A DNA stretch of 64,000 nt from Gammaproteobacteria bacterium (GTDB taxonomy: Bacteria > Pseudomonadota > Gammaproteobacteria > Steroidobacterales > Rariloculaceae), in assembly GCA_039933105.1 (NCBI GenBank), contig JBDTOT010000019.1, positions 14,524 through 78,523 on the forward strand, given 5' to 3'. The notes under the pieces are model-generated. The model was not told the origin of the DNA. It did no database searches and saw only the letters and a program-made list of their open reading frames with translations. How positions within the stretch are numbered: position 1 is the stretch's first letter; every line of letters starts with the position of its first letter. The position numbers were made by a program, and so were the translations under genes. This document shows positions 53,665 through 64,000 of the stretch, one piece after another.

Positions 53665-54834
53665 ATGGTTGTGAGCGACCTCGAGCCACTCGATCTATAC
53701 GATGTTCGCGGCCTGCTCAGCGACAGTGAGCAGCTCGTGCAGGAGACCGTCGCTCGATTCGTCCAGCGCGAGGCACTCCCGATCATCGACGCGTGCTTCG
53801 CTACCGAGCGCTTTCCGCTCGAACTCGTGCCGCGGCTCGGGGAGCTCGGGCTCTTCGGTGCCACGTTGACCCAACACGGCGGAGCCGGGCTCAGCTACAC
53901 CTCTTACGGACTCATCTGCCAGGAGCTCGAAGCGGGCGATAGCGCGCTGCGTAGCTGCGTGTCCGTGCAGAGCAGCCTCGTCATGGGCTGTATCGCCGCG
54001 TGCGGCACGCCGGAACAACGCGAGCAGTGGCTGCCATCCATGGTAGCCGGCAAGAAGCTCGGTTGCTTCGCGCTCACGGAAGCGCACGGCGGCTCCGATC
54101 CTGCGCGCATGCGTACCCGCGCAGAACGCAGCGGAAGAGATTGGGTGCTCAACGGCGCGAAGATGTGGATCACGAACGGTACGCTCGCGGATGTCGCCGT
54201 CGTCTGGGCGGTGACTGACGGGCACGTAGGTGCGTTCCTCGTCGAGCGCGGCACGCCCGGGTTCGAGAGCCGGCTCGTGAAGAACAAACTGTCGCTGCGT
54301 GCGTCGAGCACCGCGGAACTCAGCTTCGCAGACGTGCGCGTGCCGGCTGCTGCTCGCTTGCCGGGAGCCCAAGGACTCAAAGCGGCACTGCGCTGCCTCG
54401 ACGATGCCCGCTTCGGCATCGTATGGGGCGCCGTCGGCGCCGCACGCGCGAGCCTCGCGAGTGTGCTCGTGTACGCACAGTCCCGCGAGCTGTTCGGCGG
54501 GCCACTCGCGGGCAAACAGTTGATCCAGGCGCGGCTCGCGGACGCCGCGCGCCGTATCACCTCTGCCCAGCTGCTGGCCTGGCGCCTTGGGCAGCTCAAG
54601 GATCGTGGCGAAGCGGAGACCGCGCAGATCTCGCTCGCGAAGTGGAACAATGTGCGCATGGCCCTCGACGTCGCTCGGGACTGCCGCGACATGCTGGGCG
54701 CTGCCGGCATCACGCTCGATCATTGCCCGATGCGCCACGCGCTGAACCTCGAATCCGTGATCACGTACGAGGGAACTGAGAGCGTCCATCAGCTGATCGT
54801 AGGACGGGAGCTGACAGGGGAAAATGCCTTCTAG
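53665..54834 (+). CDS. gcdH: glutaryl-CoA dehydrogenase
   Basis: Collinear with GCDH-type acyl-CoA dehydrogenases: SVQSSLVM, GCFALTEAHGGSDP, LSLRASSTAEL, KQLIQARLAD, LGQLKDRG, RHALNLESVITYEGTESVHQLIVGRELTGENAF. Confidence 0.92.
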   Translation: MVVSDLEPLDLYDVRGLLSDSEQLVQETVARFVQREALPIIDACFATERFPLELVPRLGELGLFGATLTQHGGAGLSYTSYGLICQELEAGDSALRSCVSVQSSLVMGCIAACGTPEQREQWLPSMVAGKKLGCFALTEAHGGSDPARMRTRAERSGRDWVLNGAKMWITNGTLADVAVVWAVTDGHVGAFLVERGTPGFESRLVKNKLSLRASSTAELSFADVRVPAAARLPGAQGLKAALRCLDDARFGIVWGAVGAARASLASVLVYAQSRELFGGPLAGKQLIQARLADAARRITSAQLLAWRLGQLKDRGEAETAQISLAKWNNVRMALDVARDCRDMLGAAGITLDHCPMRHALNLESVITYEGTESVHQLIVGRELTGENAF

Positions 54835-54877
54835 GTACGGCGGAGTGGCCGTCTCCCGTGCTAAATTGCGCGGCTCC

Positions 54878-54948
54878 GGCTAGGTGGCAGAGTGGTCATG
54901 CAGCGGCCTGCAAAGCCGTGTACAGCGGTTCGATTCCGCTCCTAGCCT
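54878..54948 (+). tRNA. tRNA-Cys (anticodon GCA), CCA not encoded
   Basis: Hand-folded cloverleaf. Acceptor GGCTAGG/CCTAGCC, anticodon arm GCGGC-CTGCAAA-GCCGT, T arm AGCGG-TTCGATT-CCGCT, discriminator T as expected for Cys. Confidence 0.9.
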
Positions 54949-55065
54949 CACCGAAGCCCCCCAAAGACACCCCGCCCGGACTTCAGAACGCGCCTAACCC
55001 GCATAGATGCTAGGCTGCGCCACCCCGTAACACCCCGCGTCACCCGTTGACAGCGCGAATAGCCC

Positions 55066-55113
55066 GGGGGTACCTTTCGGGGGTACCTAGTACCCCCGCG
55101 AGGAAATACCCCC
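55066..55113 (+). promoter_or_regulatory. repeat/palindrome cluster immediately upstream of int (candidate operator or arm-type sites)
   Basis: GGGGGTACCT at 55066 and 55079 (13-bp period). GGGGGTAC-cta-GTACCCCC palindrome at 55079-55097. ATACCCCC at 55106-55113 abuts the int ATG. Confidence 0.5.
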
Positions 55114-56397
55114 ATGCTGACGGATCAAGCCTTGAAGGCGTTGAAGGGTGCCGAACGCCCCTACAAGAAGCCCGACGAGCGGGGGCTTTTTGCATTCGTG
55201 CAACCGAACGGCGCGGTGTATTTCCGGTTCAAATACCGCTACGGCGGGCGCGAGAAGTTACTCGCGTTCGGCGTGTATCGCAGCGCGATGCCGGAAGGCA
55301 AAGACCCGACGGGGGCGCCGGTCTACCGACTGCGGCCCGGAGACGTGACACTAAAGCGCGCTCGGGAGAAGCGCGACGAAGCCAGGGGATTGCTTGAGCG
55401 GGGCATTGATCCCGGCGCGAAGCGCAAGGCCGAAAAGACCGCGCAGGCCGATACGTTCGACGCGATCGCGCTCGAATGGCTCGCCAAGGGGTGCCCGCCG
55501 CGCAAGAAAGGCGAAACCATTGGGGCCGATACCGTCGCGCAGCTCGAGCACCGCCTAAAGACCTACGTTTCCCCGTACATAGGCAAATGGCCGCTCGCCG
55601 AGATCAAAGCATCCGATCTGCTGCAGTTGCTCCGCAGGATCGAGAGCAAGGGCACGCACGAGACCGCGCACCGCGTGCGTTCAGTGGTCGGGCGGGTGAT
55701 GAGATACGCGGTCAATTCCGGGCGTGCCGAGCGGGACATTTCCGCCGATCTAAAAGACGCGCTGATCCCGGTTAACGCCAATCATTTCTCGGCCATCACC
55801 GACCCGAAAGCCTTGGGGGCGTTACTGCGGAAGATGGCGGTTTATAGCGGCCAGCCCGCCACTAAGGCGGCGCTGCAATTGCTGGCGTTGACCTTTGTTC
55901 GGCCCGGGGAGCTGCGGCTCGCGACGTGGGGGGAGTTCGATCTTGACGCCGCGCAATGGGTGATTCCGGCCGCGAGAATGAAGATGCGCAAGGTTCACGT
56001 TGTACCGCTCGCGCCGCAAGCCGTGGAGATCCTGACCGAGCTTGCGAAGCTCACGGACAAGGGGCCGAGCTCGTGGGTGTTCCCGAGCTTGAGGCCGCAG
56101 CGACCATTGAGCGATGGCACGCTAAACATGGCGCTGCGATCCATGGACGTGAGCGGCGAGGTTCACGTAGGCCACGGGTTTCGGTCCACGGCATCAACGC
56201 TACTGCATGAGCTTGGATTCTCCCCCGACCTGATCGAGACACAGCTCGCGCATAGCCGGCCCGGGGTGAGCGGAATCTACAACCGAAGCCACCGACTGCC
56301 CGAGCGCGAAAAGCTCATGCACTCGTGGGCGAATCATCTTGACGGACTGCGCAGGGGGGCGAACGTGACGGCGATCCGTTCGGGTAAGTCGGCGTGA
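55114..56397 (+). CDS. int: tyrosine-type site-specific integrase (P4-like, DUF4102 N-terminus)
   Basis: N-terminus LTDQALKALK...YFRFKYRYGGREKLLAFGVY. Catalytic region with HGFRSTASTLL and LAHSRPGVSGIYNRS. Lies next to a tRNA gene. Confidence 0.93.
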   Translation: MLTDQALKALKGAERPYKKPDERGLFAFVQPNGAVYFRFKYRYGGREKLLAFGVYRSAMPEGKDPTGAPVYRLRPGDVTLKRAREKRDEARGLLERGIDPGAKRKAEKTAQADTFDAIALEWLAKGCPPRKKGETIGADTVAQLEHRLKTYVSPYIGKWPLAEIKASDLLQLLRRIESKGTHETAHRVRSVVGRVMRYAVNSGRAERDISADLKDALIPVNANHFSAITDPKALGALLRKMAVYSGQPATKAALQLLALTFVRPGELRLATWGEFDLDAAQWVIPAARMKMRKVHVVPLAPQAVEILTELAKLTDKGPSSWVFPSLRPQRPLSDGTLNMALRSMDVSGEVHVGHGFRSTASTLLHELGFSPDLIETQLAHSRPGVSGIYNRSHRLPEREKLMHSWANHLDGLRRGANVTAIRSGKSA

Positions 56398-56903
56398 GCG
56401 GCGACAAAGAAAAGCCCAAGACATTGCGAGAGGAAATCGTCGCAGCCATAGCGGCACCCGCCGACCCCGAGCCCGAAACTGCCGAGGCGAAGGCCGAGAG
56501 AGAGCGGCTAGAGTCAAAGCTACTCGCCGAGCTTGAGGACAAACACGGCCGGCGATGGATCGCCGAACGTCGGCGGATCGTGGGCAGGGACGGGAAGCTC
56601 GTAGGCCAATTGTCGATAGAGCAAACGTTTCGCGAGCTTGAAGGGCGCGATTCCCTGCACTGGCTCAAGCACAAGCGCGCCGAGGGGCAGCGCAACGCGA
56701 GAAACGCCAAACTCGATAGGCAAAGGAAATTGCCGACTGATCCCAAAGTATCTGCGGAAGTGGCCGCTATCGTCACAGAGAAAAAAGTTACGCCGGCAAG
56801 GGCGCGGACGATGTACGCGGCCCGTCTGCGCAAACGATTTCCGAACGTCAGCGCGTCCGCTATCAACAAGAAACTTCGCAAGGCCGCATCTAAGAAAACT
56901 TAG
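56394..56903 (+). CDS. hypothetical phage protein (highly charged)
   Basis: GTG overlaps the int stop. 169 aa rich in Lys/Arg/Glu. No family recognised. Confidence 0.5.
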   Translation: MSGDKEKPKTLREEIVAAIAAPADPEPETAEAKAERERLESKLLAELEDKHGRRWIAERRRIVGRDGKLVGQLSIEQTFRELEGRDSLHWLKHKRAEGQRNARNAKLDRQRKLPTDPKVSAEVAAIVTEKKVTPARARTMYAARLRKRFPNVSASAINKKLRKAASKKT

Positions 56904-56998
56904 CGGCCGCTAAGTCCCCCGAAGTCCCTGCGCGCTCTTTGCCGAGCGTTTTTTGCGCCCTAAAGTCTCTCATGGCAACACATGGAGACCTTGCAGCA

Positions 56999-57265
56999 AT
57001 GCGGCAAACAATTTGGCGCAAGCCGGACCTTGAGTCACAGCTCGGACTTTCCAGAACCGCTATCGAGTGCCTAGAAGCCGGTGGACTGTGGCCGCCGCGA
57101 ATTTCCCTATCTGAACGAGCCGTTGGTTGGCTCTCTGCTGAATGCTCCGCGGTAATCGCCGCGAGAGCGGCGGGGCAATCCCCCGACGAAATCCGAACGC
57201 TTGTTCGCCAGCTTGTGGCGGCGCGTGTGCGTGCGTTCAACGAATGCGTTGGACGAATCGCCTAA
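56999..57265 (+). CDS. AlpA-family phage transcriptional regulator / excisionase-like HTH protein
   Basis: The core LESQLGLSRTAIECLEAGGLWPPRISLSERAVGWLSAECSAVI matches the AlpA pattern (HTH followed by R-A-V-G-W). Upstream in-frame ATGs at 56972 and 56939 are possible alternative starts. Confidence 0.7.
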   Translation: MRQTIWRKPDLESQLGLSRTAIECLEAGGLWPPRISLSERAVGWLSAECSAVIAARAAGQSPDEIRTLVRQLVAARVRAFNECVGRIA

Positions 57266-57334
57266 TCCCGAAAAAGCAACGGGCCGGTTGATGGCCGACC
57301 CGTCGCGCGAGGACAAACAGCAAGTGAGGACAAC

Positions 57335-57583
57335 ATGCGCACACTACGCGACGCCACCAACCGCGGCAAATCAGCGAGCGTTTTAGTTTTCCGAAGTGAC
57401 GCGGCTGGATGGCACATTGACGCGGGCGGTCGCGCTCATTTCGTGCCGACTGGTCACCTGTTCGCATTTCGTGGAAATGACCCGCTCTGCGGCGTTCGTC
57501 TCGAATCGCCGCGGCGAGTGAACCGCGACCGAGTAGCGCGCTGCGGCCGGTGCGTCGCGCTGCGGGACGGCGGCGACGAATGA
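57335..57583 (+). CDS. hypothetical small protein
   Basis: 82-aa ORF preceded by GTGAGGA at suitable spacing. No family recognised. Confidence 0.4.
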   Translation: MRTLRDATNRGKSASVLVFRSDAAGWHIDAGGRAHFVPTGHLFAFRGNDPLCGVRLESPRRVNRDRVARCGRCVALRDGGDE

Positions 57584-57767
57584 TCGCGCGACGCGCCACG
57601 GGTTCGCAGGTCACGCAACCACGAGCTGCGCAGATACACCAGCGCGCGCAATGCCGCGGTTGCGGTGCGCCGTCATGGTCGGGGGTTTGTCCGACGTGCC
57701 GCGCGTGGTCAACCGCGTTGCTAAGTCTCGAACGCACCGTCGCCGCGATTCGAACTGCGAGGCGGAC

Positions 57768-59330
57768 ATGACTTCTGACGCGCAACGCAGTGAAGAATAC
57801 GAGCGCGCGCTACTCGGCGCGCTATTGCTCGACCCGACCGCATGGGAACGGGTGCTACCGCTCAACGGTGGGGATTTCTCGCCGCAGAATCGTTTGATCT
57901 TCGCAGCGTTCGCCGACGCGATCCGCCGCGGCGAGTCAGCGGATTCCGTGACCATCACTGAACGGTTAGAACGCGCGGGCCATCTTGAGCCGATCGGCGG
58001 GCGCGAATATCTCGCGCGACTGATTCAAGACACGCCCGGCACGGCCAACTTGACCGGCTACGCGGCAAAGATCCGCGAGTATTCGGCGCGGCGGCAACTG
58101 CGCGAAACCCTATCCCATACGCTAGAGCGCATCGACCAAGGGCACGAGCTCGCCGAGATCACGACCGCAACACGCGAGGCTCTGCAGCGTGCGAGCGTGA
58201 CGACTCCCCATGCCGAACCGCTATACAACGCAACCGAGCTTTCGGTTGCCGATCTGCTCGACAGTGAACCGGAGCCGCGGCGCTGGATTCTGCGCGACCT
58301 ATTGCCGTTAGGGATCGTCGGCCTACTCGCGGCCGGTGGCGGCACGGGTAAGAGCTTTTTCATATTGCAGATGGCGATTGCGATTGCGACCGGCCGCGCG
58401 TTTCTTGGGCTCGAGATCGCCGAGCCCGGAGCGGTGCTACTGCTCTGCGGTGAGGATGAGCGGGCCGAACTACACCGCCGCTTGTGGAGAATCGTTGACG
58501 CGCTGAAAGGCCGCGGGCAGTTCAGCGATAGCGATGACGAGCTGGTGCGTGAGCGGTTGCACATAGCCTCGCGTGTCGGTGAGGACAATCTACTAACGCA
58601 GGTTTTCAACGGCGCGGTTATCCGAACCGGGCTCGCCGAGCGGATCGCAGCGACGGCGGCGCAGATACCGGCGCTAAAAATGATCGGGCTTGATCCGGTG
58701 TCGCGATTTCGCGGCGGGGATGAAAACAGCAACGATGACGCGACGCGATACGTTGAAGCCGTCGAGACTCTGCGAGCAGCCACGGGCGCGACCGTGCTGA
58801 TGGCGCATCACGTTAACAAGATGGGGCTTGCCGCGGGAGCCGAGCGCTTGAGCGCGGAAGGCTTGCGCGGCGCATCGGCCATGATTGATGGCGTGCGGTG
58901 GGGTGTCGCCATGGGCACCCTGCGCAAGGATCAAGCGGAACAATTCGGCCTTGATCCAGAAGAAGCGCACCGATTCGTTCGCCTGGACGCGATCAAGAAC
59001 AACTACGGCGCGCCATGGTCGGGGCTGTGGCTCGAGCGCACGCAAGGCGGGGTGCTCGTGCCGGCCGAGATGCCCGGGCGCCGATCCGAAAAGGTCGAGC
59101 AGCGCGGCGAGTTTCGGTATCGGGAAACCCTGCCAAAGATTCAAGGCTTGATCCGCCAGGAACGCGAGCAAGGCCGCACGATGACAAAAGGCCGCCTGCG
59201 CCAGTTCGCGGGGACTGCCGGTCTATTCGCGATGAGCGACCAGACGTTGCGCGGGGTGATTGAGCGGGCGTTAGCGGAAGGGGCGATTAAACGCCGAGTG
59301 AATGGCTCTGGCGAGGAATTGCACCTGTGA
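57768..59330 (+). CDS. replication ATPase: DnaB N-terminal domain fused to RepA-like (AAA_25) P-loop domain
   Basis: N-terminus EEYERALLGALLLDP...GREYLARLIQDTPGTANLTGYAAKIREYSARRQL is DnaB-N-like. Walker A LLAAGGGTGKSFF, Walker B-like LLLCGEDE and VLMAHHVNK follow. ATG 57768 chosen within ORF 57651..59330. Confidence 0.8.
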   Translation: MTSDAQRSEEYERALLGALLLDPTAWERVLPLNGGDFSPQNRLIFAAFADAIRRGESADSVTITERLERAGHLEPIGGREYLARLIQDTPGTANLTGYAAKIREYSARRQLRETLSHTLERIDQGHELAEITTATREALQRASVTTPHAEPLYNATELSVADLLDSEPEPRRWILRDLLPLGIVGLLAAGGGTGKSFFILQMAIAIATGRAFLGLEIAEPGAVLLLCGEDERAELHRRLWRIVDALKGRGQFSDSDDELVRERLHIASRVGEDNLLTQVFNGAVIRTGLAERIAATAAQIPALKMIGLDPVSRFRGGDENSNDDATRYVEAVETLRAATGATVLMAHHVNKMGLAAGAERLSAEGLRGASAMIDGVRWGVAMGTLRKDQAEQFGLDPEEAHRFVRLDAIKNNYGAPWSGLWLERTQGGVLVPAEMPGRRSEKVEQRGEFRYRETLPKIQGLIRQEREQGRTMTKGRLRQFAGTAGLFAMSDQTLRGVIERALAEGAIKRRVNGSGEELHL

Positions 59331-59512
59331 TGCGCAACCCCGCGCACGCACAGTTTCGGAAACTGCCCGTAGCCGAGCGGACGCTCGCGGTAAGGCGAAT
59401 TGCCGAAGCCTTCGGGATTCATAGGGCGAGCTATGCGACGGGCTTGAGCGTTGAGGAAATTCGCCGATTGATGGCAACGAGCGAATACCATGACGCTACG
59501 CGGGTTAACTGA
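59327..59512 (+). CDS. hypothetical small protein
   Basis: 61-aa ORF. Its ATG at 59330 overlaps the upstream stop (TGATG). No family recognised. Confidence 0.4.
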   Translation: MMRNPAHAQFRKLPVAERTLAVRRIAEAFGIHRASYATGLSVEEIRRLMATSEYHDATRVN

Positions 59513-59840
59513 CGCTGAGCTAGACCGCGCAACGTGCGCCTGCGGCGCGCAGTTCGCCGATTCTCTCGCTTGGTGCGCGCATCGTCCCTGGCTCACACGC
59601 TGGCACCGTGACCGCTGTCGATGGCCCGAAGCGCTTTACCTTGGCGCAGACGATCTTTGGCAGTTACGCCCCGACGCTCGGGCGGCTGTGCAACGGGCAG
59701 AAATCGGCACCCCCGAAAACTACCGCATACAGGCGCCGACACGCCGACCCCTTAGCGGGGTAGCGGGTAGGGCGCGAAAACGGCCAATGGGCGCGAGCCC
59801 CACAAACACCCCTAGCAACGGCGCGGGCTCCAGGGGCTAG
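59490..59840 (+). CDS. hypothetical protein
   Basis: 116-aa ORF co-oriented and overlapping its neighbour by 23 nt. Cys/His/Trp-rich N-terminal half. No family recognised. Confidence 0.4.
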   Translation: MTLRGLTDAELDRATCACGAQFADSLAWCAHRPWLTRWHRDRCRWPEALYLGADDLWQLRPDARAAVQRAEIGTPENYRIQAPTRRPLSGVAGRARKRPMGASPTNTPSNGAGSRG

Positions 59841-59878
59841 GGTATGGGGCTAACGACCGATTCTCGGAAGGCTCAAGG

Positions 59879-60256
59879 ATGACCGCCGCGCAAGCTTCCG
59901 AGCTATTGCGCCGAGCGCTACGTGATGCGCAGTTCGGGCACAAGGTTTCTCCCGATGACCTAGCCCCGGCCCTAACGCTGCTGCGCGAGATCGAGCAGGG
60001 GAGCGTTAGCTCGACACGGGAACAAATCGTCGGGCGTGCAGTGCTCGCGAAATTCAACGCGTATAACGAGCGCCGAGCGGCACAAGGCGCACGACTGCGC
60101 GCGGCGGTCGGCGAGATTCTAAGCATGAAACCGGACGTGAGCGCGGAGCAGATTCTCGCGACGCTGCAAAAACTCGGCGCACGCGCACTCGAACGCGAAA
60201 CGCTGCCGAGTCTGCGCACGATCCATTGGCATATGAGCGCAATTCGCAAAGCGTAG
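59879..60256 (+). CDS. hypothetical protein
   Basis: 125-aa helical ORF preceded by AAGGCTCAAGG. No family recognised. Confidence 0.45.
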   Translation: MTAAQASELLRRALRDAQFGHKVSPDDLAPALTLLREIEQGSVSSTREQIVGRAVLAKFNAYNERRAAQGARLRAAVGEILSMKPDVSAEQILATLQKLGARALERETLPSLRTIHWHMSAIRKA

Positions 60257-60281
60257 GCGTTGCAAAAATCGGTGAGCCAGT

Positions 60282-60536
60282 ATGCGACGCATGGAATTGC
60301 ACACTGTATCAACGCCGAAAATTTCCTACACGATGACCGAGGCCGAGCTTGCGACCGGCTTGAGTCGGGCGAGCCTTTATCGTGCGATCGCGCGCGGCGA
60401 ACTGCGCCGGCAAAAGATCGGCAAGCGCACACTCATTCTGTCAGAGGATCTGCGCGCCTTTTGCGGCGGCGGATTAGATCGTCTCGCCGAAGCGCTGGCG
60501 CGAGCCACGCAACTGAACCGGAGGACCGCCGAATGA
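60282..60536 (+). CDS. excisionase-family (MerR-like HTH_17) DNA-binding protein
   Basis: TMTEAELATGLSRASLYRAIARGELRRQKIGKRTLI matches the short phage Xis/HTH_17 pattern. Exact start uncertain. Confidence 0.7.
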   Translation: MRRMELHTVSTPKISYTMTEAELATGLSRASLYRAIARGELRRQKIGKRTLILSEDLRAFCGGGLDRLAEALARATQLNRRTAE

Positions 60537-61624
60537 TCTTCACCGAAAAAGACGTGAACCCCCCGCCGTCCGACGAGGCTGGCGAATTGGCTGACGCCAA
60601 GCGGAACGAAGACGAAACCCGGCGCAGCGACATTGAGAGCGCTTTTCGCGAAGCCAGTTCGAAATCGTCGGCAGATTCGGATTTCGAGAGCGCTGGCCCG
60701 TTGCTCGACGATCTCGAGGCGAGATTCCCCGGCCGCACTGCGCCGGAGATTGTTCGCCATTTCGCCAGTCGACACAGAGCCGTGATGGCCGACCCGGTGA
60801 ATGGCGGCGCATTGATTGCGAGAGAGTACTCGCGCGATTCCCGGCTGTTTTCCGGCGACCGTGCTACCGCAAAAGATCCCCGCGCCGCGGACAATGAGGT
60901 CACGCTCACTCTGCCAGGCGGTCAAAAGGTCTATGCCGCGGAAGGCTCCCGCGCCCACGACGTGGCGAAGGCGGTAGCGGCCTCGATGCGCAACGACCGC
61001 GACGGCGAACAGTTACGCGAGTTGCAGCACGAGCTAACCGCCGCGTTCCCCGGATCGTCGAGTCTCACGGACGGACTGCGTTCGATGATCGCGTTTGACA
61101 CTGCCGCGCAGCTAGATCCCGTAGGTGCCGCAGTCCGACTGGCTAGCGCGAACGGCGCACCCTTGAGCCCGGCCGACGTTCCCGTCTACCAGCAAACGCG
61201 CGCCCTAGCACAACTGATCGGGCCGCATTTCGAATTGCCTGAGTTTCAATCGCTGAAAGGTCGCGAGGACGAAGTAACCGCGCTGGTTGCATCGGGCGAG
61301 GTGTCGATTGACCAAGGCATTCGCGGCGTGCTCCGCCAAGCCGGCGAAGTGCTGGCATTCACCGACACCGCCAACGCAGAAATTAAAGCGATGGCGAAAA
61401 GCGCGGACTTCCCCCGCTTCAAGGAATTACGCCAGGACATGGCGCAAGCGCTCGAGGAAGGCAAAGCCAACTCTCTCCCGCAAGCCTACAAAATCGCCGA
61501 CAAGGCCAAGCGCCGCCACCCGTCAGAATCCGAACGCCACGAGCAGCGCCGTGCCGATATTCAAAACGCAGGTAACGAGGCGTGGAAAAACCACAAGCGA
61601 AAGCGCGACAAGGCACTGCGCTAA
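60533..61624 (+). CDS. hypothetical phage protein
   Basis: GGAGGA lies 8 nt before ATG 60533, which overlaps the upstream stop (ATGA). 363 aa, acidic N-terminus, basic C-terminus. The upstream part of ORF 60260..61624 overlaps the Xis-like gene and is discounted. Confidence 0.55.
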   Translation: MIFTEKDVNPPPSDEAGELADAKRNEDETRRSDIESAFREASSKSSADSDFESAGPLLDDLEARFPGRTAPEIVRHFASRHRAVMADPVNGGALIAREYSRDSRLFSGDRATAKDPRAADNEVTLTLPGGQKVYAAEGSRAHDVAKAVAASMRNDRDGEQLRELQHELTAAFPGSSSLTDGLRSMIAFDTAAQLDPVGAAVRLASANGAPLSPADVPVYQQTRALAQLIGPHFELPEFQSLKGREDEVTALVASGEVSIDQGIRGVLRQAGEVLAFTDTANAEIKAMAKSADFPRFKELRQDMAQALEEGKANSLPQAYKIADKAKRRHPSESERHEQRRADIQNAGNEAWKNHKRKRDKALR

Positions 61625-61645
61625 ACACGGGAAACGCATACCCCC

Positions 61646-61903
61646 ATGAGCGATCACGCGCACGAAACAACTAAGGGCACCGCAGGAAATTCCACCGCAG
61701 GGGCAGCCATGCACGACAAGCCCATGCGACGGACACCGGAGGAAATCGCAGCATCGCGCTCGCATGTGCGATCAACCCAAGGCTTCCGGCCCGAGCAGAA
61801 AGGTGCGGACGAGCTGGCACGTATTGCGGATTGTTTGGAGTCGCTGCGGCTTGATCTGCGAGTGCTCGTTGACGTGCTGAGCGGCGAGCGGGGGCGCGCA
61901 TGA
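61646..61903 (+). CDS. hypothetical small protein
   Basis: 85-aa ORF. Its ATG is preceded by the same ATACCCCC word that precedes the int ATG. Confidence 0.45.
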   Translation: MSDHAHETTKGTAGNSTAGAAMHDKPMRRTPEEIAASRSHVRSTQGFRPEQKGADELARIADCLESLRLDLRVLVDVLSGERGRA

Positions 61904-61925
61904 GCGCGAAACCGCGAGTTGCGAG

Positions 61926-62289
61926 CTGGGTACGTTGGGTACTTTCTCGGCCGCACAAAGTTACCCGGCGCAATGCTAGTAACGGCGCGGGTTTGGGGCA
62001 TGTGTTGGGTAGTGTTGGGTACTTTCTCGGCCGAAATTCCTACCCAGCCCCGTTTTTGGGTGAAAGGAGGGTGTTGGGTAGGGTGGGTACTTTTGCCGAA
62101 AAAAAAGTTACCCAGCCCAAAGCCAATGGTGGCGCGGGTTTGAGCTGGGTAAAGGGTAACTTCGATTTCTACCCAACCTACCCAGCGCAAAGCCATACGT
62201 GGCGCGGGTTTGAGCTGGGTAACTTTTTCCCCCCTAAAGGGGGGACTGGAAAGTACCCAGCCCCCCTTAGGGGTGCTGGTTACCCAACC
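61926..62289. repeat. array of about five degenerate 68-80-bp tandem units built on GGGTA(C/A)/TACCC cores (candidate iteron or packaging-site region)
   Basis: Exact 20-mer GTTGGGTACTTTCTCGGCCG at 61934 and 62014. 44-mer at 62109 and 62179 (40/44 identical). At least 16 copies of the core in both orientations. Hairpin CCCCCCTAAAGGGGGG at 62229-62244. A8 run at 62099-62106. Confidence 0.85.
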
Positions 62290-62336
62290 GGATCGCTCTC
62301 CCATGCCAAACCGTCTTTTTCTTCGGACTTAAGAGC

Positions 62337-62822
62337 ATGACCAGCGATCACGATGACGATGACGCTGTGCCGCGTTCGGCCTACACGGGTGGCGCGCTTG
62401 AGATCGGCGCCCCTGTCCGGGTGTCGCGCCTGAACACCCCGCGGCATATCCGCGCCGAGCTCGGCCGGGTGTATCGGGAGAGCCGTCGCCGCCACGGCCG
62501 ACACCCCGATTCACAGGTAGCCGGCCGATTGTCTCGAATGCTCGCCGAGCTGCATTCGGCCGTGGTGTTCGACGAAGAAATGCGGACGCTGCAGGCCGAA
62601 GTGTTGGAGCTGCGGCAATTCCTATTTTTGAGAGGTACAAACGATGGCTCTAGGCTCTTTGAAATCAACGGGGCCGAGCCTCGCAGTCTTGCAGAAGCAG
62701 CTCGCGGAGCTGGAGAAGAAAGTCGGCGGCTCACGCACGGGGCCGGTGTTGGCGCTGACGATGACGCGGGGCGAGAGCCCGGAGTTAGTGCTACGAGCTT
62801 GGCGGAAAGAAAACCCCAATGA
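62337..62822 (+). CDS. hypothetical phage protein (3' end doubtful)
   Basis: The ATG follows AAGAG. The first ~100 codons look protein-like (RHIRAELGRVYRESRRRHG...LQAEVLELRQ). The tail overlaps the next, better-looking ORF out of frame. Confidence 0.45.
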   Translation: MTSDHDDDDAVPRSAYTGGALEIGAPVRVSRLNTPRHIRAELGRVYRESRRRHGRHPDSQVAGRLSRMLAELHSAVVFDEEMRTLQAEVLELRQFLFLRGTNDGSRLFEINGAEPRSLAEAARGAGEESRRLTHGAGVGADDDAGREPGVSATSLAERKPQ

Positions 62823-63042
62823 TCCCGAGCCCGAAGTGACTGTGCTAACCGAGATCTTCGGCGCGCTGCCGCGGCTCGAGCTTGCGACCGAGGCCAGCAT
62901 TGCCGAAGCGCTGCCGGGGGTGAAAGCGTTTCTCGTGCAGCTTGGCGACCACGCGGCGATTGAACGCTGGCGAGGGCTGGCTCTGCTCGCGGGGCTCGAC
63001 TATGACGCGGCCGAGATGATCTGCTCCGGGGTGGTGCATTGA
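62644..63042 (+). CDS. hypothetical phage protein (small-terminase position)
   Basis: GAGAGG lies 8 nt before ATG 62644. 132 aa with a coiled-coil N-terminus. Any role is inferred only from its position upstream of the large terminase gene. Confidence 0.5.
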   Translation: MALGSLKSTGPSLAVLQKQLAELEKKVGGSRTGPVLALTMTRGESPELVLRAWRKENPNDPEPEVTVLTEIFGALPRLELATEASIAEALPGVKAFLVQLGDHAAIERWRGLALLAGLDYDAAEMICSGVVH

Positions 63043-63200
63043 GCGCTTCGAAGTCTCGAGCAGACTCCCAAGGATCGGCTACGGGCCGCGTATCTGCGAC
63101 GATGCCGTGGCGGTGGTTTGGCAGATACCCCCTAGGATACCCCCTACCCACCACCCGAGCGCGTCCCCTACGCGTTCCCTGAGGCTTAAACGGGCACTCC

Positions 63201-64000
63201 ATGCAGACCCGCCTAATCCGCTCCCAAGTCCCCCGAGCCTTCGAGCCGCTACTCGCGCCGGCTCGGTACAAAGGTGCCTGGGGCGGTCGCGGTTCCGGCA
63301 AGTCGCATCATTTCGCCGAGCGGCTAACCCTACGGTGCCACGAGCGCCCGACCCGTGCCGTATGCGTTCGCGAGGTTCAATTAAGCCTGCGAGATTCCGT
63401 GCGCCAATTGCTCGCCGACAAGATCGAAGCGCTTGGGCTCGCGGGCGAGTTCGAAGTGTTAGACGCGGAGATCCGCGGCAAGCGTTCGGGGAGCCTAATC
63501 ACGTTTCGCGGTATGTCGGCGGTGACGGCCGAGAGCATTAAATCACTCGAAGCCTATGACATTGCCTGGGTCGAAGAAGCGCAAACCCTTTCCGAGCGCT
63601 CGTTGATGCTGCTCCGGCCGACGATCCGCAAAGAGGGCTCGGAGATTTGGGCGAGCTGGAATCCGCGATACCGAACCGATCCGATAGACGAGTTTTTTCG
63701 CTACAAACCGCCGCGAGGTGCGGTGTCGGTCTCTGTGAACTGGCGGGACAATCCATGGTTCCCCGACGTGCTAAGCCGCGAGCTCGAGCACGACTACGCG
63801 ACCGACCCCGAGCAGGCCGCGCACGTTTGGGGCGGGGAGTACGGCGTAGAACACGGCGCGATTCTCGGCCGGCTCGTTGAGTCCGCAGAGCGTGAGGGGC
63901 GAATCAACGACAACGTTGAGTATTTCCCTGACGGCCCCGCCGTGGAGATTTCGAGCGATCTAGGCTTTCGCGACACTGCGTCATGGTGGTTTTGGCAGCG
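63201..64000 (+). CDS. terL: phage terminase large subunit (PBSX/Terminase_3-like), 5' part; 3' end outside window
   Basis: Not in the supplied ORF track because it is open at the window edge. My translation from ATG 63201 is MQTRLIRSQVPRAFEPLLAPARYKGAWGGRGSGKSHHFAE...YDIAWVEEAQTLSERSL...WASWNP...NPWFP...HVWGGEY. Walker A is GGRGSGKS and the Walker B-like motif is AWVEEA. Confidence 0.85.
   Translation, partial: MQTRLIRSQVPRAFEPLLAPARYKGAWGGRGSGKSHHFAERLTLRCHERPTRAVCVREVQLSLRDSVRQLLADKIEALGLAGEFEVLDAEIRGKRSGSLITFRGMSAVTAESIKSLEAYDIAWVEEAQTLSERSLMLLRPTIRKEGSEIWASWNPRYRTDPIDEFFRYKPPRGAVSVSVNWRDNPWFPDVLSRELEHDYATDPEQAAHVWGGEYGVEHGAILGRLVESAEREGRINDNVEYFPDGPAVEISSDLGFRDTASWWFWQ

Follow-up and report, generated by a model that had tools for sequence, protein, structure and literature searches.

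A non-coding array of short words in both orientations upstream of a prophage terminase gene: a candidate protein-docking site

Introduction

In the packaging site (pac) of phage P1 the region that is cut is flanked by seven TGATC(A/G) hexamers, four to one side of it and three to the other. In phage P4 the primase-helicase binds the words of ori and crr, the latter being made of long direct repeats that each contain several words. Here we describe an array of short words in a prophage of a Gammaproteobacteria bacterium, within a 64,000-nucleotide stretch of DNA (the window; assembly GCA_039933105.1, contig JBDTOT010000019.1, positions 14,524 to 78,523) whose own numbering is used throughout. 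The array, at 61925-62290, consists of five units of about 70 bp with 16 copies of one word in both orientations. In all likelihood it serves as a docking platform on which a phage DNA-binding protein assembles; that the words are bound by a protein, which protein this is and that the outcome is packaging are points that we infer. A non-coding, cis-acting packaging-initiation (pac-like) region is the assignment that we put forward, as a possible one and tentatively.

Two groups of described systems come closest. The pac region of the Bacillus phage SPP1 has three sets of direct repeats spanning promoters and the start of the small-terminase gene, and between the related phages SPP1 and SF6 the repeats vary while the cleavage box is conserved (PMC4737164). 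Phage-inducible chromosomal islands (PICIs) of Gram-negative bacteria have an int-alpA-rep layout and are transcribed in one direction (PMC6092414). In the Staphylococcus aureus pathogenicity islands (SaPIs) the initiator-helicase carries a C-terminal winged helix that reads penta- or hexanucleotide iterons, of which there are 6-12 in two opposed sets (PMC9371898).

Structure of the array

The array word, G(C/T)TGGGTA(A/C)(C/T)TT, is about 12 bp long and is present in nine forward and seven reverse copies (n = 16). An initial annotation of this region had listed nine GGGTA and seven TACCC positions together with longer repeats, hairpins and an A8 run, and all of these are present where it had put them. 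The exact 20-mer GTTGGGTACTTTCTCGGCCG is found at 61934 and 62014, and two 44-mers at 62109 and 62179 are 91% identical, with a 66% copy at 61962. Sixteen of the 72 GGGTA/TACCC matches in the window fall inside the 360 bp of the array, and the total of 72 itself compares with 35 +/- 5.5 in shuffles of the whole window. The longer form TGGGTA/TACCCA reaches 14 per 400-bp frame at the array, against a window median of 4 and a 99th percentile of 7. A weight matrix built from the 16 sites recovers all of them at 9.8-20 bits and finds just five matches, at 9.2-14.5 bits, across the remaining 63.6 kb; the word clusters at a single place in the window. Two readings of short sequences were rejected by eye, TGGCGCGGGTTTGAGC as a sigma-54 promoter and the array word as a DnaA box, each with about three mismatches at key positions.

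The five units follow one another with periods of 79, 69, 71 and 70 bp and a mean column identity of 64%. In outline, a unit starts with a direct doublet of words 7-10 bp apart and has an inverted copy 24-25 bp further on, and five imperfect palindromes are formed by inverted words at a spacing of 35-38 bp, each folding 3-4.4 standard deviations better than shuffled sequence. Among the forward words there is phasing at 9.9-10 bp (R = 0.78, p ~ 0.02); none of about 10 bp was found for the reverse words. Tandem Repeats Finder, a check of the kind that had been proposed, reported the 10-bp doublet but not the periodicity of about 70 bp. The earlier wording, degenerate tandem units, is therefore accurate, but phased word sites combined with palindromes are a better description of the array.

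All five units are given here on the + strand. Unit A (61925..62003) has the word doublet 61928/61937, the inverted word at 61962 and the degenerate copy of the 44-mer. Unit B (62004..62072) has the doublet 62007/62017 and an inverted word at 62041, and its palindrome, with a left arm from 62039, is closed at 62082 by the first word of unit C (z = -3.3). In unit C (62073..62143) the doublet 62076/62085 is followed by the A8 tract (62099-62106) and by a palindrome of 45 bp, whose left arm and loop run from 62108 and which finds its closing arm in unit D, in the first word there, at 62152 (z = -3.6). Unit D (62144..62213) combines the words 62147/62154 with an inverted doublet 62170/62179; the left arm and loop of its palindrome start at 62179, and the first word of unit E closes it at 62221 (z = -3.7). 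Unit E (62214..62290) has one forward word at 62217 and inverted words at 62254 and 62281. It contains the core palindrome of 48 nt (62214-62261; z = -4.4), centred on CCCCCCTAAAGGGGGG (62229-62244), the core of which is common to the related array described below, and a second hairpin, CCCCCCTTAGGGG, at 62261-62273.

The proportion of G and C (GC) is 0.52-0.57 in the array and about 0.63-0.66 in its flanks, in keeping with the lower GC that had been noticed by eye. The location given earlier, downstream of a DnaB-N/AAA_25 helicase gene and upstream of a Terminase_3 large terminase gene (terL), is also confirmed: the array ends 47 nt before the first downstream gene, here called ORF8, and 0.86 kb before terL.

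Coding capacity of the array region

An open reading frame (ORF) of 146 aa on the + strand, 61900..62340, spans the whole array. Its ATGA overlaps at both ends, with the stop codon of the small conserved upstream gene o85 and with the start codon of ORF8, had been noted previously and are real. It had also been proposed that the DNA word is conserved and not a peptide, and this is borne out by several lines of evidence. The interval between o85 and ORF8 that holds the array (61904..62336; GC 0.52-0.59) has a negative codon log-likelihood in all six frames, and from 61940 to 62240 the three codon phases are equal in GC, whereas the flanking genes all show the usual phase pattern. Scored for codon usage with 18 long host ORFs as the training set, the spanning ORF has a log-likelihood of -0.34, compared with +0.11 to +0.26 for its neighbours, -0.02 for o85 and +0.15 for the coding part of ORF8. 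No homologue of its 146-aa product was found among 5.8 billion proteins. In the record of the source metagenome-assembled genome (MAG), o85 (ABI640_10805) and ORF9 (ABI640_10810), the gene that follows ORF8, are consecutive features, and 61904-62643 is without annotation. Among the covariance models of Rfam 15 only a tRNA-Cys was matched in 54000-64000 at E <= 1.

The spanning ORF might instead be a genuine, translationally coupled gene, encoding a repeat or disordered protein or acting as a spacer that is kept open across embedded DNA sites, much as the ori of lambda lies inside gene O. The frame has no internal stops where the other two + frames carry 4 and 10, any + frame is left open in only 0.3% of dinucleotide shuffles, and the ATGA overlaps would fit coupling to o85 and ORF8. 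The shuffle test, however, overstates its significance, because stops ride on the repeated words and are not independent events; most of the unit periods are not multiples of three; and the codon periodicity, codon usage and homologues that a gene would be expected to show are those found absent above. In addition, the counterpart stretch in the related contig described in the next section has stops in all three frames. We regard a gene here as very improbable. Because the stops ride on the words, and because that counterpart is stopped in every frame, the open frame 61900-62340 is probably fortuitous; translation through the array is conceivable. The functional object is the DNA, not an encoded peptide.

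A related array with a different word

A second array was found in a contig (L259) from a distant relative whose ORF9 protein is 38-41% identical to that of the window. The contig begins 174 nt upstream of an ORF8-like gene, and those 174 nt are non-coding. Between nt 15 and 99 they contain five copies of CGGACA/TGTCCG, where 1.3 would be expected in the entire 1.7-kb contig, and these words are again arranged in doublets 9-10 bp apart and in both orientations. They are accompanied by a palindrome of 44 nt (-19 kcal/mol, z = -6.3) with the centre CCCCCTTAAAGGGG. From the centre of the palindrome to the start codon of the next gene the distance is 108 nt in L259 and 100 nt in the window, and the two long palindromes have a common core, CCCCC(C/T)TAAAGGGG, for which 1.5 Mb of fetched DNA yielded, besides the window and L259, a single unrelated site. 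The architecture of the array and its core are therefore conserved, whereas one word has taken the place of another. Such a pattern would be expected if a variable, element-specific protein reads the words while a conserved partner, or the structure of the DNA, makes use of the core. Judged by L259, the array is linked to the beginning of the ORF8-ORF9 block and not to the helicase, and for this reason the comparative evidence leans to packaging or regulation.

Contigs L259-L262 of this lineage come from independent assemblies (SRR26786843-48), and all end at the array or slightly short of it. These breaks could be an effect of the palindromes on assembly with short k, or alternatively they could be physical genome ends. 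Because related contigs end in or near the array, its palindromes probably break short-read assemblies.

The pair of arrays also bears on the idea that the repeats are of a selfish kind, such as repetitive extragenic palindromes of the host type or a cluster of miniature transposons that was inserted into the prophage. Chained imperfect palindromes with a GTAG/GTAC-type head would suit such an origin, as would the position of the array at a point where gene order differs from that of relatives. The word cluster is, however, absent from the 55 kb of flanking host DNA, and phage and plasmid collections gave no match. Random insertion would moreover not be expected to give what is seen in L259, a different word around a shared core whose distance from the gene matches that in the window, and we consider it highly unlikely that the array arose in this way.

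The ORF8-ORF9 block and its relatives

ORF8, the first gene past the array, has a coding part of about 102 aa (62337..62643, + strand) and is unannotated; it is a candidate for the protein that binds the array. Its coding signal ends at about 62640, where the frame of ORF9 takes over, and the ORF8 frame stays open for another 180 nt (62337-62822). It is either an unannotated gene of about 100 aa with a non-coding tail or the product of a frameshift in the MAG assembly. ORF9 (62644..63042, +) belongs to a small uncharacterised family that travels with the block, and it is followed by the large terminase gene (63201..64000, +), of which the N-terminal 266 aa lie in the window and the remainder past its end (Terminase_3, 1.4e-30; phrog_3717, 3.6e-54). 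Neither ORF8 nor ORF9 has a match in Pfam, PHROGs or NCBIfam. The model of ORF9 is confident (predicted local distance difference test, pLDDT, 86) and has no structural match in the PDB; that of ORF8 shows three helices at low confidence, and no ORF8 homologue was found among the 5.8 billion proteins. The nearest named relatives of the terminase are those of Xanthomonas PBR31 (53% identity) and of the Pseudomonas phages H66 and PA8 and their relatives (44% identity). We take H66 and PA8 to be F116-like, and F116 is a generalised transducer with headful packaging.

An exhaustive HMMER search with ORF9 among 1.84 billion representatives gave eleven relatives with 31-52% identity over the matched stretch; a word-index search had returned the self match only. 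In these relatives there is a conserved, uncharacterised block consisting of an ORF8-like gene (about 100 aa), sometimes one or two small genes, an ORF9-like gene and an o85-like gene. In contig L253 a Terminase_3 gene 67% identical to that of the window lies two genes past the block, and in L266 a homologue of a 363-aa gene of the window is found upstream of it (E = 1e-11 in a single pairwise comparison). The o85 homologue is downstream of the ORF9 homologue in L253 (926-1093), L259 (1004-1276) and L266 (2931-3104). In the window, unlike in these relatives, o85 (61646..61903, +; 85 aa; homologue at E = 1e-9) is just upstream of the array, which therefore sits at a local rearrangement of gene order. 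The ORF8-like protein of L256 is 77% identical to that of L259. Similarity between ORF8 itself and the ORF8-like genes of relatives was not significant by BLASTP or by profile comparison, and the latter, having the same length and the same place, are best treated as positional counterparts only. In L256 (411-1121) and L266 (2272-2802) adjacent small genes of the block have a common N-terminal helix, MR(D/A/R)(I/V)E(K/R/N)R(L/I)xxLE, which suggests that they are tandem paralogues of the N-terminus of ORF9.

Packaging initiation

A packaging function would work as follows. Many copies of a sequence-specific DNA-binding protein encoded by the element would occupy the 16 copies of the 12-bp word. 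These copies stand in doublets spaced by one helical turn and in inverted pairs at a spacing of 35-38 bp, and they surround a conserved palindromic core some 100 nt before the start of ORF8. The product of the first downstream gene or genes (ORF8, possibly together with ORF9) would coat or wrap the array, and the protein bound to the words would offer the core to the large terminase (Terminase_3), so that this enzyme could begin a headful series with its first cut. In favour are properties set out above, namely the lack of coding signal, the density of the word and its confinement to one place, the helical phasing, the palindromes, and the L259 counterpart with its rarely found core. The resemblance to the repeat sets of SPP1 pac and the likely kinship of the nearest named phages, H66 and PA8, to the headful packager F116 speak for it as well. 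The ORF8-ORF9 block is directly upstream of a Terminase_3 gene both in the window and in L253, and the array and its core are fixed in position relative to the first gene of this terminase-leading block.

Several observations weigh on the other side. There is no recognisable small terminase; neither ORF8 nor ORF9 matches a terminase family, ORF9 matches no solved structure, and the model of ORF8 is of low confidence. The ORF8/ORF9/o85 block does not lead to a terminase gene in L259 or L266, where other genes come next. In L254/L253, L256 and L266 a coding gene runs up to the start of the ORF8-like gene and the array is absent. The initial annotation had considered that absence from syntenic prophages would tell against a function, and the picture is a divided one: L259 has an array, while three relatives keep the genes without one. 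The L259 array is the only comparable one found and is cut by the end of its contig. In 160 related large-terminase loci the array word, the ORF8, ORF9 and o85 genes and any comparable array near the terminase were all absent. Finally, the characterised pac sites of P22, SPP1 and P1 have far fewer repeats than 16.

A broader possibility, to which we give rather little weight, is that the core, the variable flanking words and the genes ORF8, ORF9 and o85 make up a previously undescribed DNA-recognition module whose specificity is reprogrammed by exchange of the word while the core is kept. This might be a small-terminase-like system in place of the classical helix-turn-helix (HTH) small subunit, or it might be a pair of initiator and origin.

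Replication and transcriptional control as alternatives

The integrated element starts at a tRNA-Cys gene (54878-54949) and runs to the end of the window, with all of its genes on the + strand. These include a tyrosine integrase gene (int, 55114-56397), a gene of the AlpA family (56939-57265), a replicative helicase gene (57768..59330), a gene of the HTH_17 family (60282-60536) and the 363-aa gene mentioned above (60533-61624). The possibility that the array marks a boundary of the element was ruled out, because a copy of the end of the tRNA-Cys (attR) is absent from the window.

The helicase has a DnaB N-terminal domain, an RSF1010 RepA-type ATPase domain and a C-terminal tail of about 70 aa without a match, and the array could be the replication origin at which it loads itself, the words being iterons for that tail or for another early protein. 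We hold this to be a doubtful though reasonable alternative. The early module, int - AlpA - helicase, is transcribed in one direction as in the Gram-negative PICIs, the helicase tail has no assigned domain, and the array is the sole iteron-like cluster in the visible 9 kb of the element. The left half has 6 forward words against 2 reverse ones, and the right half 5 reverse against 3 forward, a trend without a clean split that can be compared with two opposed sets of iterons; the lowered GC and the A8 tract point the same way. The array start is, however, 2.6 kb and five ORFs downstream of the end of the helicase gene at 59330 and not immediately 3' of it. A distinct AT-rich unwinding element was not found; the 40-mer of lowest GC in the array (at 62088) has 40% GC, and this minimum recurs at three other places in the element. 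No DNA-binding domain could be detected in the tail, and the L259 array is linked to the start of an ORF8-like gene with no replication gene in view. Searches with the helicase gave just distant relatives (<36% identity), for example the RepA of IncQ, whose origin context was not useful. The 550 bp directly 3' of the helicase gene (59331-59878) are unannotated, mostly without coding signal, and contain no iterons.

The array may also be viewed as a control region for the operon that begins with ORF8, at the junction of early and late genes. In that case a repressor or activator of the AlpA-like or HTH_17 kind would bind the words cooperatively, and the palindromic core would be an operator or an RNA hairpin of the boxB or put kind. 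Two excisionase-family HTH proteins (AlpA-like and HTH_17) are indeed encoded upstream of the array, the distance from core to start codon is about 100 nt in both the window and L259, and other clusters containing GGGTA are found 7-120 nt upstream of int, of an ORF at 59879 and of terL. The core has a G/C stem and an A-rich loop, and the boxB hairpins of lambdoid phages are similar. Set against this, no sigma-70-like promoter and no intrinsic terminator were found in 59000-63400, no Rfam family was matched, 16 sites over 360 bp are far above the needs of an operator, relatives express the same block without an array, and the clusters upstream of other genes use a different word. Control of transcription, including the operator and hairpin forms of the idea, therefore seems to us rather unlikely to be what the array is for.

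The different word just referred to is GGGGGTA(C/T), which clusters at 55067-55111, 59757-59844 and 63126-63149, upstream of three genes. Near int there are four copies, two forward and two reverse, the last of which ends 3 nt before the start codon; three more lie upstream of ORF 59879; and GATACCCCCTAG/GATACCCCCTAC plus CCAC are located 52-75 nt upstream of terL. The array weight matrix gives no score to these copies. They may be operators or arm sites of the integrase and excisionase.

Searches for comparable arrays

Outside the L259 lineage, searches for DNA comparable to the array gave little. The array with its flanks had no DNA match in a phage collection, the array alone had none in a plasmid collection and the exact 20-mer had none in viral contigs, and scans of viral contigs with the helicase, ORF8, ORF9 and the ORF9 and o85 alignments were all empty. 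A degenerate pattern of the word doublet found, in viral and metagenome contigs, single matches expected by chance and unrelated 10-bp tandem satellites of low GC. The latter are long arrays of (A)AGT(T)ACCCAC in the metagenome contigs L175 (600-1000), L199 (2580-2735), L167 (1000-1083), L228 (10325-10727) and L236, in DNA of low GC without ORFs, and L175 also holds a perfect DnaA box, TTATCCACA; a relationship of these satellites to the array is improbable.

Among the 160 terminase loci the two strongest word clusters proved to be pentapeptide-repeat genes. Other repeats were seen in this set of comparisons. In a terminase-related prophage (L076, 6480-6640) TGACGTTTC repeats and an AT-rich tract with CCCCTAAAGGGG lie inside the ORF of a replication gene, an arrangement reminiscent of the gene-embedded origins of lambdoid phages. 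Three units of about 137 bp in L004 (9360-9700) and three AATCAAGAT words 9-10 bp apart in L003 (387-423) are 300-640 nt upstream of their respective terminase genes.

Significance and comparison with known systems

The array region is blank in automatic annotation. If the array is a packaging or replication site, a cis-element will have been identified, ORF8 and the ORF9 family will be implicated as its readers, and a function will be suggested for a block of genes that has no annotation of any kind. The window and L259, with one core and different words, form a natural specificity swap, and with it a clean system in which to study how DNA recognition changes in phages and satellites.

The pac regions of SPP1 and SF6 (pacL-pacC-pacR) resemble the array in being non-coding DNA that lies upstream of, and extends into, the first packaging gene, with repeats spaced by the helical turn around a cleavage site. 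The array differs from them in that it is made of 16 copies of a single word, some forward and some reverse, with a chain of palindromes, and in that the gene which follows it is not a recognisable small terminase of the HTH type. In P1 pac, too, hexamer words that are specificity elements flank a central core within a few hundred bp; those words are fewer, they are Dam sites, and the site is inside a terminase gene. The cos region of the lambda type (cosN plus cosB) likewise lies just before the first packaging gene and has a partly symmetric, conserved core beside variable sites to which the small terminase binds. Unlike lambda, the window has a terminase of the PBSX/Terminase_3 type whose nearest named relatives are taken to be headful packagers, and the core of the array is a perfect G/C hairpin.

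Among replication systems, the origins of SaPIs and PICIs share with the array short iterons in opposite orientations, and the elements are similar in layout, whereas those origins directly adjoin the 3' end of rep and are built around an AT-rich melting region. P4 ori and crr, which had been suggested as a parallel from the outset, also consist of one short word in both orientations kilobases away from the primase-helicase gene. P4 has two clusters of one octamer, however, and the visible part of the present element has a single cluster of its word, and the helicase of the window is of the DnaB-N/RepA type and is not a homologue of P4 alpha. Arrays of words that recruit a terminase or an initiator are thus a known class of element, and the array described here is unusually dense and rich in palindromes, not categorically new.

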